Source: Spirochaetia bacterium
Lineage (GTDB): Bacteria; Spirochaetota; Spirochaetia; CADAEX01
Length of the DNA stretch: 64,000 nt
Direction: 5' to 3'
NCBI GenBank assembly: GCA_963662265.2
Contig: CAXXHA010000008.1
Location: 1-64,000 of the forward strand
Part shown: positions 14,295 through 63,232 of the stretch, piece after piece
Position numbering within the stretch: the first letter of the stretch is position 1
How the letters are laid out: the number at the start of each line of letters is the position of its first letter
Made by a program: the position numbers and the translations under genes
Notes under the pieces: generated by a model
What the model saw: the letters and a program-made list of their open reading frames with translations, nothing else
Databases searched by the model: none
What the model was told of the DNA's origin: nothing

Positions 14295-14340
14295 TATTAT
14301 AATTATTATTTATCAGAGCTGTTTAGTCAAAAAATATTTC

Positions 14341-14439
14341 TATTGCCCGGTTGAGCTGTTTGACTGCCGCGACAGGGGTGGCGCGTGTTCCTGCACCTGC
14401 AAGAACTGTGACAAAAGGCAAATCTGCTCCAGCTGATTG
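14341..14439 (-). repeat. Terminal degenerate attC, interrupted by IS110/IS1111 (remaining TTA at 16008-16010)
   Basis: GTTGAGCTGTTTGACTG...AAATCTGCTCCAGCTGATTG matches the attC consensus; the TAAC end has decayed to TATT. Confidence 0.85.
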
Positions 14440-14511
14440 ATACTCATTAAGCCCCCTACCCGGGTGCGGTATAATTACCGTATAACAATAATTCACTCTG
14501 GAGGAAGCTTA

Positions 14512-15576
14512 ATGAGATTTTACAATTCTCAACATCAATTTTATGCCGGGATTGATTTGCATGCAAGAAAAATGTATATCTGCATTATCGATAATAACGG
14601 CAATAAGATCTTTCACAAAAACATGGATGCTAATCCAATGAATTTAATTCAGGTGCTCATCCCTTATAAAAACAACATCATAGTCGGAGTCGAATGTGTA
14701 TTTACCTGGTACTGGATTGCTGACTGCTTAGAAGATAACAACATACAATTTGTACTGGGCCATGCCTTATACATGAAAGCTATTCATGGCGGTAAAACTA
14801 AAAACGATAAAATCGATTCATTTAAAATTGCAACAATGATCCGTGGCGGAATGTTCCCTATGGCATATGTATATCCCCGCAAAATGAGAGCTGTAAGAGT
14901 TCTTTTACGGCGAAGGCAATATTTTATTCATCATCAGTCAGCATTACTTGCTCATATCCAGAATACAAATACACAATATAATTTAAGCAGTTTTGAAAAG
15001 AATATTCTGCATGCTTCTAACAGGCAAAATATCCAGAATCGATTTGAAAATACATATACAAGGAAAAGTATAGAGGCTGATATGGAACTTCTGGATTCAT
15101 ATCACAGGATTCTTATTGGCATTGAAGCTGATATTAGAAAGCATGCTGTTCATCATGATCCAGTATCTTATCATCTGTTAAGATCTGTTCATGGCATCGG
15201 ACCAATTCTATCACTGGTTATTCTCTACGAAATAAATGATATTAACAGATTTCCTGGTGTTGGTAATTTTATTTCATATGCAAGACTTGTTAAATGTTCT
15301 CATGAATCTGCAGGAAAAAGAGTAAGAGGCGGACATAATAAAATCGGGAATGCTCATCTTAAATGGGCTTTCAGCGAAGCAGCTGTTCTGTTCTTGCGGA
15401 ACAATGAACCGGCTAAAAAGATGCTGTAGCAGTTAAGTGCCAGATACGGCAAAGGGAAAGCTCTTTCATTAATTGCTCAAAAACTGGCAAGAACTGTTTA
15501 TTTTATACTCAAACGAAAAGAACCTTTTAATGCTGATAGATTTTTTAGGGATAGTGTACATGAGCCTGTCGTATAA
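14512..15576 (+). pseudogene. IS110 DEDD transposase with in-frame TAG at 15427
   Basis: GIDLH, KNDKIDS, GIGP, ESAG motifs; the frame continues ALSLIAQKLARTVY to TAA at 15576. Confidence 0.85.
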
Positions 15577-15990
15577 CTGGATCAATATGTGATGAGGTTG
15601 TTGATGACCTTTATTATTTGCAGCTATGACTGCCTATGGCCATCATACCCGTATATCATGAATCCCGTCTGTTTGATTAGACATGTACACTGATCCTTTT
15701 ACATATAAAAGAGCTGCAGGAAATATTACAGTGATCTGTCCTGTGCTGACCTGCCCAAGTAACTATAGCCGGTAAAACATCCGGACTTATCTTTTTGCAT
15801 CAGGCAGCATTCAGGTACCGAATTAATTCTACGGCATATTAATTATGACCGTCTATATGTGTTTGATACAGATCCACTTCTGTATAATTCTTTGAATCTC
15901 GAATTGGATGGCTTAATATCTCCGGCTCCTCTTTTCTCATCATTGGAAACGATAATTTTCGGGGCCGGATACTATTTTGTTATTGACTTA
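15577..15990 (+). ncRNA. Candidate bridge/seek RNA region of the IS1111-like element
   Basis: Position downstream of the transposase as in IS1111; contains ATATGTGAT, identical to the predicted circle junction. Confidence 0.5.
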
Positions 15991-16021
15991 CCGGGGGCTT
16001 ATATGTGTTATCTTCCTATTT

Positions 16022-17098
16022 TTATTTCTTTAATATTTCATATAACTTCTTGTTTATAAATATTTTTTCTTTTCCAAAAGCCTTTGATTCCAATATTCCT
16101 ATTTTTTCCAGTTGTGTTAAATATTTACTTGCAGTCCTTCTTTCTGCTATTTCATTTTTGACTAAAAAATCAATCTTAGTATATGGTTGCCTAAAAAGCA
16201 GTTCTATCAATTCTTTTGTATAAGTTGTTTTAGGAAGTTTTTCTTTACAAAATTCTATTGTTTCATCCATTAAATCTTTTATTGAACTTACGGTTTCTAA
16301 GGTTTCCAATGATGTCACTTCTATTGCTGTAAGCATAAACATTATCCAGTTTTCCCATTCATTTTTATCCCTTACATTTTGTAAGTATCTATAATAACTA
16401 TCTTTATTTCTTATAATATAACTACTTAAATACAATACAGGAGAATTTAATAATCCTTTTAAAACAAGATACAATACATTTATTATTCTTCCAGTCCTAC
16501 CATTTCCATCATAAAAAGGATGTATTGATTCAAATTGATAATGGATTATTGCTAATTTCATCAATGGATCTACTTCATTATCAATATTTATATATTCTTC
16601 TAAATTTTTTAATAAATCTCTTATAATTTTTTCATCATCCGGAGGAATATATACAACCTCACCGGTTGTATCATTCATCAATTGTGTCCCAGGTAATTTT
16701 CTTATTCCTGCTCTATTTTTCTCAAGACTTTCTTGAATTTCGACAATACTTTTAGTCGTTAAAATATTCTTCTGCAATATTAAATTATACCCTTTCCAAG
16801 TAGCTTCTCTATAATTTAATACTTCTTTTGTTGCAGCATCATATTTATTATCTTTTTTCAGCATTGCTTGATATATTTTATCTTGGGTAGTAATAATATT
16901 TTCTATCTCAGAACTTGCTTTTGCTTCTTTGAGTATGATTGTATCCAAAAGAATATTTTCATTTGGTATTGTAGAACAGTATCCATTCAATTTTGCTAAT
17001 GCTTTGTTAGCTTTTATTGCTTTACGGAGGATTTTTACACTTTCTATATCCTCTTTTGGCGGTAAAAATGGTAAATCATTATTTGCTATTTTAGTCAT
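16022..17098 (-). CDS. Fic family protein (cassette)
   Basis: HPFYDGNGRTGR motif; EAKASSEIEN. Confidence 0.92.
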   Translation of the reverse strand: MTKIANNDLPFLPPKEDIESVKILRKAIKANKALAKLNGYCSTIPNENILLDTIILKEAKASSEIENIITTQDKIYQAMLKKDNKYDAATKEVLNYREATWKGYNLILQKNILTTKSIVEIQESLEKNRAGIRKLPGTQLMNDTTGEVVYIPPDDEKIIRDLLKNLEEYINIDNEVDPLMKLAIIHYQFESIHPFYDGNGRTGRIINVLYLVLKGLLNSPVLYLSSYIIRNKDSYYRYLQNVRDKNEWENWIMFMLTAIEVTSLETLETVSSIKDLMDETIEFCKEKLPKTTYTKELIELLFRQPYTKIDFLVKNEIAERRTASKYLTQLEKIGILESKAFGKEKIFINKKLYEILKK

Positions 17099-22839: not shown

Positions 22840-23151
22840 TCCTGGTAGTTTTTGTCGTGATTACATACTAAGGTTTGACTCTTTTTTTTCCTATAGGGTG
22901 GGGAATTTTATTTTCCATCCTATGGGGATTTCATGTTACCATTTCCATTATGTTGAACATCTCACTTAACTCAGTTACTGAGAACTGCTGGCTCTTCCAA
23001 AGGATAATAAATTCCTTCTTTTGGTCCATCGCATTTATCTCCCTCCAAGGCATCAGATCCCCCTTTTCGTAAGGATTTTTCTGCCTTTAAGTGTAAGCGA
23101 TGTGCCTTAAGTTTTGTAAGCGATGTCCCTTTAGTGTACCTTTTGTATGCT

Positions 23152-23253
23152 TAACGCCAAGTTGAGCTGTTTGACTGCCCCGCCAGGGTTGGCGCGTGTT
23201 CTTGCAACAGCAAGAACCGTGACAAAAGTCAAATCTGCTCCAACTTATTGTTA
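23152..23253 (-). repeat. attC (standard)
   Basis: TAAC...GTTA palindrome. Confidence 0.92.
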
Positions 23254-23271
23254 AACGCTAAATTTCAATAC

Positions 23272-24096
23272 TTAATTCAGATTATATCCGAATTCTCTGG
23301 TTTTCATAATATTTTTCCAATGTGCTTCTCTTCTAATTATTATTTCATCATCAGTAATTGACGATCTTACTTCAAGTATTGAAAATTGATAATTATTTGC
23401 ATATTCAATTCCATTTTTTTCAATTACTTTTTTTAGATCAATATTATTTCCATGTCCATTTTTTGAATAATTTTTCCATCTATCCCAAAAAGCATTTTCC
23501 CCATATGCTGAACCAACATATAATTTTCCGTTTGTTTTATCAGTAATTAAATATACACCTTTTGTACTTGATAATGCACTTTTCCAAGATGCTTCTTCTT
23601 CATTAATTACTTCTTGTAATTCTTCATAGTTCAATAATAAATTTTCATATCCGGGAAAGGGTTCAATTTTATACGGTTTTTCAAGTAATTCGCTAATTTC
23701 AAAATTATTGATGTGTTTTTCTAGTAATAGATATGAAGCTCGAAAATCTTTATTAAATTTAATTATTAGTCGACCAATTAAATCTTTTTGTAACTCTGTT
23801 AAATTTGTCTTATATGAAAAATATTCTTTTTCTTTTGATTTATCATATTTTTTAGTTACATCCAATTTTTCATAAATACCGCCGTAGATCCAATAATTTG
23901 GTTTATAATAAATAAGTGATATAATATATTTTCTTTCAAAATTTTTATTATTCTGATATTCTTGCCATTCTTTGAATTCATTTCTTATTAATTTATATAA
24001 TGGTTCTTTTTTATTTAATCGACCTATAGCCATGTGGAGTTTGTATTCATCGGTTTTTTCTATTATTTCTGGGAAAATATGTTCGAATTTAACCAT
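23272..24096 (-). CDS. GIY-YIG nuclease cassette, copy 1
   Basis: GVYLITD..GKLYVGSA..R..E..N motifs. Confidence 0.9.
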   Translation of the reverse strand: MVKFEHIFPEIIEKTDEYKLHMAIGRLNKKEPLYKLIRNEFKEWQEYQNNKNFERKYIISLIYYKPNYWIYGGIYEKLDVTKKYDKSKEKEYFSYKTNLTELQKDLIGRLIIKFNKDFRASYLLLEKHINNFEISELLEKPYKIEPFPGYENLLLNYEELQEVINEEEASWKSALSSTKGVYLITDKTNGKLYVGSAYGENAFWDRWKNYSKNGHGNNIDLKKVIEKNGIEYANNYQFSILEVRSSITDDEIIIRREAHWKNIMKTREFGYNLN

Positions 24097-40885: not shown

Positions 40886-40932
40886 TTTATATTATATTTT
40901 CCTTTTTTCTTAAATTGCCCTAAAAGGGTGCA

Positions 40933-41034
40933 TAACGCCAAGTTGAGCTGTTTGACTGCCCCGCCAGGGTTGGCGCGTGTTCTTGCAACAGCAAGAACCG
41001 TGACAAAAGTCAAATCTGCTCCAACTTATTGTTA
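40933..41034 (-). repeat. attC (standard; identical to 23152)
   Basis: TAAC...GTTA palindrome. Confidence 0.92.
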
Positions 41035-41052
41035 AACGCTAAATTTCAATAC

Positions 41053-41877
41053 TTAATTCAGATTATATCCGAATTCTCTGGTTTTCATAATATTTTTCCA
41101 ATGTGCTTCTCTTCTAATTATTATTTCATCATCAGTAATTGACGATCTTACTTCAAGTATTGAAAATTGATAATTATTTGCATATTCAATTCCATTTTTT
41201 TCAATTACTTTTTTTAGATCAATATTATTTCCATGTCCATTTTTTGAATAATTTTTCCATCTATCCCAAAAAGCATTTTCCCCATATGCTGAACCAACAT
41301 ATAATTTTCCGTTTGTTTTATCAGTAATTAAATATACACCTTTTGTACTTGATAATGCACTTTTCCAAGATGCTTCTTCTTCATTAATTACTTCTTGTAA
41401 TTCTTCATAGTTCAATAATAAATTTTCATATCCGGGAAAGGGTTCAATTTTATACGGTTTTTCAAGTAATTCGCTAATTTCAAAATTATTGATGTGTTTT
41501 TCTAGTAATAGATATGAAGCTCGAAAATCTTTATTAAATTTAATTATTAGTCGACCAATTAAATCTTTTTGTAACTCTGTTAAATTTGTCTTATATGAAA
41601 AATATTCTTTTTCTTTTGATTTATCATATTTTTTAGTTACATCCAATTTTTCATAAATACCGCCGTAGATCCAATAATTTGGTTTATAATAAATAAGTGA
41701 TATAATATATTTTCTTTCAAAATTTTTATTATTCTGATATTCTTGCCATTCTTTGAATTCATTTCTTATTAATTTATATAATGGTTCTTTTTTATTTAAT
41801 CGACCTATAGCCATGTGGAGTTTGTATTCATCGGTTTTTTCTATTATTTCTGGGAAAATATGTTCGAATTTAACCAT
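41053..41877 (-). CDS. GIY-YIG nuclease cassette, copy 2
   Basis: Protein identical to 23272-24096. Confidence 0.9.
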   Translation of the reverse strand: MVKFEHIFPEIIEKTDEYKLHMAIGRLNKKEPLYKLIRNEFKEWQEYQNNKNFERKYIISLIYYKPNYWIYGGIYEKLDVTKKYDKSKEKEYFSYKTNLTELQKDLIGRLIIKFNKDFRASYLLLEKHINNFEISELLEKPYKIEPFPGYENLLLNYEELQEVINEEEASWKSALSSTKGVYLITDKTNGKLYVGSAYGENAFWDRWKNYSKNGHGNNIDLKKVIEKNGIEYANNYQFSILEVRSSITDDEIIIRREAHWKNIMKTREFGYNLN

Positions 41878-53423: not shown

Positions 53424-53626
53424 TCCTGGTAGTTTTTGTCGTGATTACATACTAAGGTTTGACTCTTTTTTTTTCCTATAGGGTGGGGAATTTTATTTTC
53501 CATCCTATGGGGATTTCATGTTACCATTTCCACCCCGCTAGGGTTGGCGTGTAAATTGCGTATGCAATTTGCATGACAAAAGGCAAAATCTGCTCCAACT
53601 GTTTGTTAAACGCTAAATTGCTGTTC

Positions 53627-54452
53627 TTAATTCATATTATATCCAAATTCTCGCGTTTTCATAATATTTTTCCAATGTGCTTCTCTTCGAATTATAATTT
53701 CATCATCAGTAATTGATGATCTTACTTCAAGAATTGAAAATTGATAATTATTTGCATATTCAATTCCTTTTTTTTCAATTACTTTTTTTAGATCAATATT
53801 ATTTCCATGTCCATTTTTTTGAGTAATTTTTCCATCTATCCCAAAAAGCATTTTCCCCATATGCTGAACCAACATATAATTTACCGTTTGTTTTATCAGT
53901 AATTAAATATACACCTTTTGTACTTGATAATGCACTTTTCCAAGATGCTTCTTCTTCATTAATTACTTCTTGTAATTCTTCATAGTTCAATAATAAATTT
54001 TCATATCCGGGAAAGGGTTCAATTTTATACGGTTTTTCAAGTAATTCGCTAATTTCAAAATTATTGATGTGTTTTTCTAACAATAGATATGAAGCACGAA
54101 AATCTTTATTAAATTTAATTATTAGTCGACCAATTAAATCTTTTTGTAATTCTGTTAAAATAGTCTTATATGAAAAATATTCTTTTTCTTTCGATTTATC
54201 ATATTTTTTAGTTACATCCAATTTTTCATAAATACCACCGTAGATCCAATAATTCGGTTTATAATAAATAAGCGATATAATATATTTTCTTTCAAAATTT
54301 TTATTATTCTGATATTCTTGCCATTCTTTAAATTCATTTCTAATTAATTTATATAATGGTTCTTTTTTATTAAATCGACCTATAGCCATATGGAGTTTGC
54401 ATTCATCGGCTTTATTAATTATTTCTGGGAAAATATTTTCGAATTTAATCAT
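53627..54452 (-). pseudogene. GIY-YIG nuclease, diverged allele with frameshift
   Basis: T7 at 53814-53820 versus T6 in the intact copies. Confidence 0.85.
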
Positions 54453-61933: not shown

Positions 61934-62287
61934 TATTCTAAATTCTCTTTTGTTTTTTTAACAACGCCAAAATAGTTCAAGTATCCAGACTTTCACAATT
62001 ATATCATAAACCTTTACGTGTTTCACTTTCAGAAACAAAAGGCCATTATTTTCTTCCTGCGCGGGCTCAGCGTGGGGAGTTGGCCCCATTTCCACGAATC
62101 GCGTGGGCAATTATCGCCAAACTTCACCACCCTCTATCCCTGCCAGGGTCGTGGAAATGTCTACCCTAGATTGGACTGTCAGGGATCGCCAGGTAGCCAG
62201 GACACCAATAATCCGGTCTGAACCAATTCCATCCAACTTTTCCCAAATTCAGCTACGTTTTACAGCTCCTCAAATTTTGGTGGAATA
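61934..62287 (-). other. Gene-less cassette, family B
   Basis: Duplicate of 44923-45276. Confidence 0.85.
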
Positions 62288-62389
62288 TAACGCCAAGTTG
62301 AGCTGTTTGACTGCCCCGCCAGGGTTGGCGCGTGTTCTTGCAACAGCAAGAACCGTGACAAAAGTCAAATCTGCTCCAACTTATTGTTA
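62288..62389 (-). repeat. attC (standard; identical to 23152)
   Basis: TAAC...GTTA palindrome. Confidence 0.92.
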
Positions 62390-62407
62390 AACGCTAAATT
62401 TCAATAC

Positions 62408-63232
62408 TTAATTCAGATTATATCCGAATTCTCTGGTTTTCATAATATTTTTCCAATGTGCTTCTCTTCTAATTATTATTTCATCATCAGTAATTGACGA
62501 TCTTACTTCAAGTATTGAAAATTGATAATTATTTGCATATTCAATTCCATTTTTTTCAATTACTTTTTTTAGATCAATATTATTTCCATGTCCATTTTTT
62601 GAATAATTTTTCCATCTATCCCAAAAAGCATTTTCCCCATATGCTGAACCAACATATAATTTTCCGTTTGTTTTATCAGTAATTAAATATACACCTTTTG
62701 TACTTGATAATGCACTTTTCCAAGATGCTTCTTCTTCATTAATTACTTCTTGTAATTCTTCATAGTTCAATAATAAATTTTCATATCCGGGAAAGGGTTC
62801 AATTTTATACGGTTTTTCAAGTAATTCGCTAATTTCAAAATTATTGATGTGTTTTTCTAGTAATAGATATGAAGCTCGAAAATCTTTATTAAATTTAATT
62901 ATTAGTCGACCAATTAAATCTTTTTGTAACTCTGTTAAATTTGTCTTATATGAAAAATATTCTTTTTCTTTTGATTTATCATATTTTTTAGTTACATCCA
63001 ATTTTTCATAAATACCGCCGTAGATCCAATAATTTGGTTTATAATAAATAAGTGATATAATATATTTTCTTTCAAAATTTTTATTATTCTGATATTCTTG
63101 CCATTCTTTGAATTCATTTCTTATTAATTTATATAATGGTTCTTTTTTATTTAATCGACCTATAGCCATGTGGAGTTTGTATTCATCGGTTTTTTCTATT
63201 ATTTCTGGGAAAATATGTTCGAATTTAACCAT
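62408..63232 (-). CDS. GIY-YIG nuclease cassette, copy 3
   Basis: Protein identical to 23272-24096. Confidence 0.9.
   Translation of the reverse strand: MVKFEHIFPEIIEKTDEYKLHMAIGRLNKKEPLYKLIRNEFKEWQEYQNNKNFERKYIISLIYYKPNYWIYGGIYEKLDVTKKYDKSKEKEYFSYKTNLTELQKDLIGRLIIKFNKDFRASYLLLEKHINNFEISELLEKPYKIEPFPGYENLLLNYEELQEVINEEEASWKSALSSTKGVYLITDKTNGKLYVGSAYGENAFWDRWKNYSKNGHGNNIDLKKVIEKNGIEYANNYQFSILEVRSSITDDEIIIRREAHWKNIMKTREFGYNLN

Follow-up and report, generated by a model that had tools for sequence, protein, structure and literature searches.

A decayed, probably RNA-guided IS110/IS1111-family insertion sequence in the last attC of a Spirochaetia integron array

The stretch analysed here, referred to as the window, comprises the 64,000 nucleotides at positions 1 to 64,000 of contig CAXXHA010000008.1 in the Spirochaetia bacterium assembly GCA_963662265.2. 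Positions 14440-16007 of the window are an insertion sequence (IS) of the IS110/IS1111 family, 1568 bp long, which interrupts the last attC of an integron array. Overall, this copy is very probably a decayed element of the RNA-guided (bridge RNA or seekRNA) type, lying antisense in the 5' inverse-core end of that attC. This reading is carried by the ends and the target of the element, by the covariation between short blocks of its non-coding tail and the DNA they An original prediction, made from the sequence alone, had already placed an IS1111-like element inside an attC, and the ends, the flanks and the Pfam domains agreed with it.

The element, its target site and its relatives

A related Spirochaetia metagenome-assembled genome (MAG) contained nine copies that matched the window element over bases 1-1568 with ~90.5% identity (blastn), and this end-to-end match fixed both element ends except for a 2-bp TG common to the flank and the element (14438-14439 and 16006-16007). 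As the two TG copies are identical, the exact cut within TG cannot be placed; in the homologues L017 and L024, the shared base may be G alone. All ten insertions of the lineage (window and relative) were located at ...TTG|TTAY, the bar marking the insertion point, without target duplication and with the ambiguity restricted to TG, so that the fixed position at TG / G|TTA put forward in the original prediction was recovered throughout. The flanks of nine of the ten read ...CTCCAnCTnnTTG, element, TTAY.... Excision of the element in silico gave ...CAGCTGATTG|TTATC, in agreement with the right arm of the window attC family (CTCCAAnTnnTTGTTA) and with the restored attC end that had been proposed. 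Eight of the nine relative copies occupied the same attC family at the same position, as did the window copy, in one orientation, and both the window element and its close relative sit in attC ends.

The tenth insertion (L002:2400-4000) was found at CTGTCTATTG|TTATG, a look-alike site (CTATTG|TTATG) situated 2.73 Mb from the integron and with a left flank devoid of an attC arm; here the element went off target, into bases that resemble those matched by the guides. In a third sample (run X7), window positions 14388-16013 were matched by an element copy of ~94% identity (1578 bases compared, with 86 differences and 13 gaps) with a different attC arm at its left, and another X7 contig passed through an empty site of the same form.

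The left end of the element reads ATACTCAT followed by TAAGCCCCC, and the end sequence GATACTCATTRAGGCC was conserved among homologues. The subterminal inverted repeat is perfect over 9 bp and reaches 12-13 bp if a bulge is allowed; its terminal extensions measure 8 and 6 nt, or 10 and 4 nt according to the assignment of TG. Non-coding DNA covers 72 bp ahead of the start codon at 14512 and 431 bp after the stop (15577-16007), the latter instead of the ~410 bp first given, and the longer side is downstream, as in the IS1111 group.

Relatives were collected by pattern scans, which yielded 50 genome loci and the best 80 of 417 metagenomic relatives. Profile searches for both ends paired 64 elements; six were added by hand and one was removed (L034, odd right end), leaving 69 elements, among which 64 insertion sites and 54 non-coding tails were distinct. 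Genome hosts included Spirochaetota, Planctomycetota, Geobacteraceae, Calditrichia, Gemmatimonadota, Candidatus Aegiribacteria and Eisenbacteria. The left-flank consensus across the clade was nnGTCnGCTCCAnCGnnTTG, the right flank opened with TTR in 54 of 59 cases, and all 64 distinct sites shared G|TT. As the strict motif GTTRRRY was present in only 14 of the 59 right flanks, the target is described as G|TTR. The flanks of the other homologues were read as attC ends from the shared consensus and the general form of attC arms, and on that basis this clade, named here after its closest named member ISMahy12, appears to span many phyla and to lie nearly always in attC-like ends. A palindromy test of the reconstructed empty sites (duplex energy) was left unused as insensitive: even the known attC of the window obtained z = +0.9, and z was below -2 for 12 of 52 sites.

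Two homologues had particular surroundings. In L030 (2230-2420), the right end occurred twice, ~148 bp apart, followed by TTTGG at the first occurrence and by TTAGCC at the second. A 56%-identical homologue (L135:1068-3544) was carried by a conjugative plasmid of cultured Vibrio campbellii, beside another IS110-family gene and an IS4, with flanks ...CTTGAACAGATTG|TTATGTG.

The transposase, with its in-frame TAG read as X, was assigned to DEDD_Tnp_IS110 (PF01548; E = 1.7e-16) and Transposase_20 (PF02371; E = 1.4e-18), both passing curated cut-offs; among solved structures, the transposases of IS621 (E = 2.1e-12) and ISCro4 were nearest. The in-frame stop mentioned in the original prediction was confirmed (TAG 15427-15429): it drops the last 49 residues and leaves a 305-residue protein, the ESAGK motif (with its Ser) and both Pfam domains preceding the stop. 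The protein of the relative is 94% identical, and the relative L003 possesses Gln at this codon with a frame open over 354 aa. Contigs from a second sample showed the same left junction without difference and covered 15294-16100 with a sole difference at 15326; none was listed at the TAG codon, so the stop is not the slip of one assembly. Moreover, TAG ends 7 of the 43 long frames in the window and is therefore an ordinary stop here. A DNA search of the host genome (41 contigs, 3.77 Mb) found the element in single copy and no second transposase of the clade, a protein-level search not having been made. One copy beside at least 30 free targets, against nine in the relative with an intact gene, fits a loss of self-movement, and the window copy is most likely a dead end at the array terminus, immobile by itself.

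Guide blocks and fold of the non-coding tail

Covariation between the tail and the DNA was evaluated by shuffling the assignment of lineages to DNA 10,000 times across 52 tails (the 54 minus L130 and L081, whose ends are uncertain), right-flank tests covering 48 lineages as four flanks were too short. Block A, which extends to the G of the core alone, scored 2.04 against the three variable bases of the right flank, compared to 1.44 in shuffles (z = 5.9; 0/10,000). Block B scored 3.63 against seven bases of the left flank (2.36 shuffled; z = 8.4; 0/10,000), and its core covaried with the core of the flank, TG or GG (z = 4.6; 1/10,000). Block C scored 5.08 against six bases of the right end (4.26 shuffled; z = 10.4; 0/10,000). 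Mismatched controls gave z = 0.6 (block C with the left flank) and z = 0.5 (block B with the right end). Blocks B and C are each trailed by two bases of partner DNA: the AT after block B corresponds to the first two bases of the element, and the TT after block C to the first two bases of the right flank.

Matched switches were found for each block: ATAAC/GTTAT, CTAAC/GTTAG, CCAAC/GTTGG and TTAAC/GTTAA for block A and the right flank; GCGGCGTGG/ATGGCGTGG, TTGCTCTTG/ATGCTCTTG (L079) and ATCGCCATG/AGCGCCATG (L089) for block B and the left flank; and, for block C, words equal to those of the right end, including ATACGTG (L064), TATATATG (L067), ATAGATG (L111) and ACATGTG (L030). Judging from this covariation, blocks A, B and C are the right-target, left-target and left-donor guides, respectively.

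The four words named in the original prediction were all present, ATATGTGAT at 15585, TATATGTGTT at 15854, CTGTTTGA within 15669-15676 and TTTTGTTA at 15975, and, followed across homologues as had been proposed, they fared differently from one another. The match to the right junction, TATATGTGTT, proved to be block C, a conserved internal-loop sequence that covaries with the element end, and the attC-like CTGTTTGA corresponded to block B (CTGTTTG, 15669-15675), a conserved loop sequence that covaries with the left flank; both are validated by covariation and not by word length. The proposal of an RNA guide is retained, in that an RNA derived from the non-coding region 3' of the gene offers the best account of target specificity, and its headline evidence, ATATGTGAT, fails. 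Points beyond the original prediction are that the right-target guide overlaps the stop codon, that P0, the outer stem of the target loop, begins within the transposase gene, that the attC is the terminal one, and that the transposase clade seems remote from the published IS1111-attC group.

Structure was aligned for 50 of the 52 lineages, L082 and L096 being omitted as near-copies of L081 and L087. As RNAalifold gave implausible long-range pairs on the whole tail, the modules of the conserved region (~330 nt, with three internal loops) were folded separately. Blocks A and B form the two strands of a loop closed by P0, which comprises 13 pairs, 12 of them changed on both sides, and in which 93.4% of cells were paired; its cognate strands had a mean energy of -27.1 kcal/mol, compared to -17.7 for non-cognate strands. 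For the whole target loop, 89.5% of cells were paired (66.4% shuffled), with a covariation score of 0.705 (0.265 shuffled; 0.09-0.15 when the partner was slid). A shorter helix pairing GGATC after block A with GATCC after block B was dropped for the longer P0, whose 3' part uses the same GATCC.

The donor module, closed by P2 (90.9% paired, both-side changes in six of seven pairs) and P3 (96.0% paired), contains hairpin Hc, with seven pairs all changed on both sides and 86.0% of cells paired, and block C lies between Hc and P2. Over P2, P3, Hc and the helix P4 described below, 84.4% of cells were paired (69.8% shuffled), with a score of 0.399 (0.166 shuffled; 0.055-0.099 when slid). At 15868-15887, the 3' strand of P2 can alternatively form a TACAGA/TCTGTA hairpin, and homologues retained both possibilities (e.g. 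GGTGCGAA/TTCGCACC in L058), which hints at alternative folds.

Right-donor guide candidates were block F, on the 5' strand of the donor loop, and a linker motif AUGAGU that fits in other lineages. By eye, block F was complementary to the left end over 8 of 9 bases in L079, 6 of 6 in L030 (GAUGAG) and 6 of 7 in L023. In the window subfamily (L002, L009, L054-L060), block F is a palindrome, GAAUYRAUUC, perfect in L009, with no self-folding; pairing between two RNAs could occur through it. The third internal loop is shaped like the target loop, and its enclosing helix P4 was 71.3% paired. Its block D tracked the right flank weakly (z = 4.1) and its block E hardly (z = 2.0; 244/10,000). Block E was rejected as a second left-target guide given this z-score, its 7/7 match to three relative targets being put down to U-richness, and block D was rejected as a right-donor guide as it did not track left-end variants (by eye).

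From these modules, a mechanism can be proposed. In intact relatives, the segment from ~25 nt before the stop to ~135 nt before the right end would fold into an RNA with internal loops. The 5' side of the first loop would act as the right-target guide, complementary to top-strand G|TTRnn, and its 3' side as the left-target guide, in the sense of 7-9 nt of left flank plus core and thus expected to pair with the bottom strand. A later loop would provide a left-donor guide that copies the 8 nt closing the element at its right end. Two bases of partner DNA (AT or TT) would trail each of the same-sense guides. We infer that such an RNA would be made and bound by the DEDD recombinase, and would bring the excised circle to the attC end. 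The TTGACT box near the right end belongs to a TTGAC conserved there in homologues, 19-20 nt from the end, and joined ends would align it, over an 18-nt spacer, with TGtGATACT formed across the junction. By analogy with ISEc11, the circle junction may form a promoter; among the data compared, which were contigs, no circle-junction read was seen.

Table 1. Features of the insertion sequence and of the interrupted attC, in window coordinates.
Positions	Strand	Feature	Remarks
14341-14439	-	Left (larger) part of terminal attC	Cassette sense is the minus strand; from repeat family D14, attC families, occupied versus empty sites
14438-14439	+	TG core, left copy	Identical to 16006-16007
14440-16007	+	Insertion sequence, ISMahy12-like clade	From nine end-to-end copies in the relative, and flanks
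14448-14456	+	Left subterminal inverted repeat TAAGCCCCC	8 nt inside left end; partner GGGGGCTTA
14512-15576	+	Transposase gene, 354 codons	TAG at 15427-15429 (codon 306); frame runs on to TAA 15574-15576
15548-15561	+	P0 outer stem, 5' strand, GGGAT.GTGTACAT	Inside transposase reading frame; closes target loop
15572-15577	+	Block A TATAAC, right-target guide by covariation	Overlaps TAA stop; complementary to top-strand G|TTATA
15585-15593	+	ATATGTGAT	Part of inner hairpin between the two target guides, not a guide
15667-15677	+	Block B GTCTGTTTG (15667-15675), left-target guide by covariation, then AT	Sense of left flank including TG core
15683-15697	+	P0 outer stem, 3' strand, ATGTACAC.TG.ATCCT	Partner of 15548-15561
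15733-15743	+	P2 (GATCTGT) and P3 (CCTG), 5' strands	Close donor module
15758-15797	+	Third internal loop: D AGTAAC (5' strand, 15758) and E ATCTTTTTG (3' strand, 15789)	Small hairpin between
15820-15829	+	Block F GAATTAATTC, candidate right-donor guide	Donor loop 5' strand
15831-15852	+	Hairpin Hc, ACGGCAT ... ATGACCGT	Within donor loop
15854-15863	+	Block C TATATGTG (15854-15861), left-donor guide by covariation, then TT	Sense of last eight element bases including core
15868-15874	+	P2, 3' strand, ACAGATC	Alternative local hairpin with 15882-15887
15983-15988	+	TTGACT, -35-like box	Near right end
15993-16001	+	Right subterminal inverted repeat GGGGGCTTA, then TATGTG	From sequence and homologues
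16008-16013	+	Right flank TTATCT, remainder of attC inverse-core end	8 nt before Fic stop codon (16022-24, minus strand)

Weighing the RNA-guided reading against alternatives

Several results weigh against an RNA-guided element. The left flank was poorly fitted by the guide in L061-L063, L012, L054, L055, L082 and L017, L061-L063 being three insertions of one element at ...GAYAGG, and as the shuffles ignore lineage relatedness, the z-scores overstate independence. The inner 4-bp stem of the target loop was weak (70% paired, with two of four pairs mostly unpaired), and the left end of the window lineage was matched well by neither right-donor candidate, block F or the AUGAGU-like linker. The perfect 9-bp repeats and 8/6-nt extensions differ from the 11-13 bp repeats and 7/3 extensions described for IS1111 members. 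Moreover, a search of the whole window at Rfam gathering thresholds returned 0 matches among 4227 families, none of the sequencing runs listed as holding the stretch is recorded as RNA, and a promoter and terminator scan of 14300-16100 returned nine promoter-like sites, compared to 7.5 expected in shuffles, and 0 terminators. A GC stem with a T-run at 15945-15980 was dropped as a terminator candidate given the latter result.

The guides could have been those designated in the original prediction, a contiguous copy of the circle junction at ATATGTGAT together with the attC-like TTTTGTTA, and the relative does carry ATATGTGAT unchanged in all nine of its active copies. It was nevertheless exact in 2 of the 50 aligned lineages (the window and this close relative), while lineages with an identical junction (L054, L055, L057-L061, L009 and L012) kept 4-7 of its 9 bases, and its GUGAUG takes part in base pairs of the consensus fold of the subfamily, where L057 shows a compensatory change. 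Matches of at least 9 nt to the 20-nt circle junction, on either strand, arose in 455 of 5000 dinucleotide shuffles of 15578-15984 (9%), so that the match is not beyond chance. A contiguous same-strand copy would also be unlike the pairing of left-donor and right-donor guides in IS621 (PMC11208160). TTTTGTTA, for its part, abuts the TTGACT box and reads TTTTGTCA in the nine active relatives, which target the same attC family. These two words are thus very improbable guides, the least probable of the explanations weighed here. Hardly more credible is a protein that reads the shape or sequence of attC itself, for instance as a folded single strand, the short matches being by-products of ancestry or composition. 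Such a protein would suit the structured nature of attC sites, the single kind of site used by every lineage, and the conservation of G|TT and of the left-flank consensus throughout the clade; relatedness also inflates the shuffle tests. Against it, guide and DNA switched together at a fine scale within subfamilies, wrong-guide and wrong-DNA controls stayed at z ~0.5, the off-target copy of the relative lay outside any attC at CTATTG|TTATG, and dependence on RNA was demonstrated experimentally for the attC-targeting ISKpn4 and ISPst6 (PMC11187229).

Within the RNA-guided reading, the window copy might still move, through readthrough of TAG, because 305 residues suffice, or with the protein supplied in trans. 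The stop falls downstream of the ESAGK motif and of both Pfam domains, and the ends, guides and helices are intact and near-identical to those of the active relative. Continued mobility is still improbable, if somewhat less so than the two preceding explanations: the copy is alone beside 30 free targets in the window, compared to nine copies in the relative with an intact gene; the second sample shares the insertion site and, as far as listed, the sequence; TAG is an ordinary stop in the window; and the DNA search of the genome, made without a protein-level counterpart, found no second transposase of the clade.

The integron array and comparison with known systems

An intact-looking integron integrase (TIGR02249; 383.6 bits, cut-off 265) is encoded on the same contig at 77912-78853, on the plus strand and opposite to the cassettes. 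The three open reading frames (ORFs) adjoining the element are all on the minus strand (one for a Fic protein, one for a class 3 lipase and one unassigned), and ordinary genes, including one for a DUF1295 protein, are found left of 14300. The array therefore runs leftward from the integrase over ~63 kb, and the element occupies the attC of the last cassette of this chromosomal array. Read on the cassette-sense (minus) strand, it lies 8 nt past the Fic stop, at the attC inverse-core end, with its transposase gene antisense to the cassettes. The 30 unoccupied CTCCAAnTnnTTGTTA sites in the window are all on the plus strand and form the right arms of the window repeat families. In the relative, eight copies were located 6-48 kb from its integron integrase, and two more searchable host genomes encoded integron integrases above cut-off, on contigs other than that of the element.

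Other observations concern the array and the genome. The far end of the terminal attC (14341-14352) reads TCTATTGCCCGG in place of the family consensus ATAACGCCCAG, so its crossover end looks degenerate. Four ~600-bp copies (23148-23758, 40929-41539, 53503-54114 and 62284-62894), 98-100% identical over 300-nt blocks except for one copy at 78% in its first half, are probably duplicated cassettes. Elsewhere in the genome, two integrase-like stretches (C10:162743-163531 and C11:30516-31125) contain one TAG each and are likely pseudogenes, since TAG serves as an ordinary stop in the window.

Integron arrays rank among the main stores of adaptive genes, and elements homing to attC can freeze or reshape them. 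In itself, the window copy, a dead end at an array terminus, is ordinary. The RNA-guided attC-seekers in print so far form a narrow, Pseudomonas-centred group. It is possible, though we hold it tentatively, that the ISMahy12-like clade constitutes a second attC-specific lineage of RNA-guided recombinases, separate from the IS1111-attC group, spread over many phyla and not described as such, in which the third, guide-like loop (AGUAAC / AUCUUUUUG) may be a second, less variable target reader that lets one element use several attC variants. If this holds for the distant clade (Spirochaetia, Planctomycetota, Desulfuromonadales, Calditrichia and others), parasitism of attC by bridge recombinases would be broad, and either old or convergent. 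In addition, the ~50 natural sets of guide, target and donor offer a comparative table for the IS1111-type layout, including guide order, core use and the two-base extensions.

Decayed IS1111-attC copies were reportedly found at array ends by Tetu and Holmes in 2008, who are also said to have given 74-90% mutual identity for the ISPa21 and ISPst6 transposases and 46% for ISPa25. Group IIC-attC introns also home to the 5' end of attC, antisense and often in the last one (PMC3001079); they are retroelements with a ribozyme and a reverse transcriptase, and have no sequence or mechanistic relation to the present element. In a survey of Shewanella integrons, IS110-family elements occurred in arrays and none in attC sites (PMC9229058).

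Elements of the IS1111 family that target attC, together with their seekRNAs, have been published for ISKpn4, ISPst6 and ISPa25 (PMC11187229), and bridge RNAs were predicted for 93% of IS1111 entries (PMC11208160). Members of the IS1111-attC group (ISPa21, ISPst6 and ISKpn4, and also ISPa25) resemble the window element in that the transposase gene is followed by a long stretch of non-coding DNA and that they insert close to the 5' end of attC in the orientation antisense to cassette transcription, as reported for ISPa21 and ISPst6 (PMC3001079). IS1111-type seekRNAs start by the stop codon, and their match to the top strand lies on the 5' side of their match to the bottom strand, both overlapping in the target (PMC11187229); blocks A and B follow this order. 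The same source gives subterminal repeats of 11-13 bp and terminal extensions of 7 (or 6) and 3 bp for the IS1111 group, and seekRNAs of 82-96 nt (long form 154 nt), compared to ~330 nt and three loops here. The hosts also differ, with environmental Spirochaetia and many other phyla on one side and Pseudomonas and clinical class 1 integrons on the other. The best 60 of 1210 plasmid records included no Pseudomonas or Klebsiella element borne on an integron; the best Pseudomonas match reached 31.6%, and the top matches (48-56%) belonged to Candidatus Manganitrophus, Vibrio campbellii, Pseudoalteromonas and Alteromonas. Used as a proxy, these comparisons and the identity of ISMahy12 to ISKpn4 given below point to a position outside the IS1111-attC clade. 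ISEc11, another IS1111-family element, has a circle-junction promoter with its -35 from the right end and its -10 from the left, and needs an RNA from its non-coding region for excision and insertion (PMC11187229); its target is short and linear and not an attC, and the junction promoter proposed here relies on the TTGACT box, spacer and TGtGATACT.

The IS621 bridge RNA system resembles the window element in the two domains of its DEDD recombinase and in the placement of guides within internal loops. In IS621, the left-target and left-donor guides pair with the bottom strand and the right-target guide with the top strand, core included (PMC11208160), and blocks A to C agree with this strand logic. 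IS621 differs in the position of the RNA, at the left end instead of the right, and in a reversed guide order within the loop, whereas the window element has long subterminal repeats and an extra loop. Plasmid genes annotated as IS621 had ~27% protein identity to the window transposase (tblastn).

In the literature searched, no paper naming ISMahy12, ISShfr7, ISShwo5 or ISSsu15 was found, and no target or RNA was described for ISMahy12; 'bridge RNA' and 'attC' occurred together only in PMC11208160, where attC stood in the title of a reference. ISMahy12, an ISfinder entry and a clear homologue, is the closest named transposase, with long identical runs seen by eye (for example GHALYMKAIHGGKTKND and NKIGNAHLKWAFSEAAVL) in the sequence given among the source data of PMC11187229. 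By our own column count in the identity matrix of that paper, ISMahy12 is 16.83% identical to ISKpn4; its neighbours there are ISGsu4/5, ISShfr7 and ISShwo5, and the IS1111 cluster stands at the opposite end. Like the window transposase, it carries ESAGK in place of the usual SG motif.

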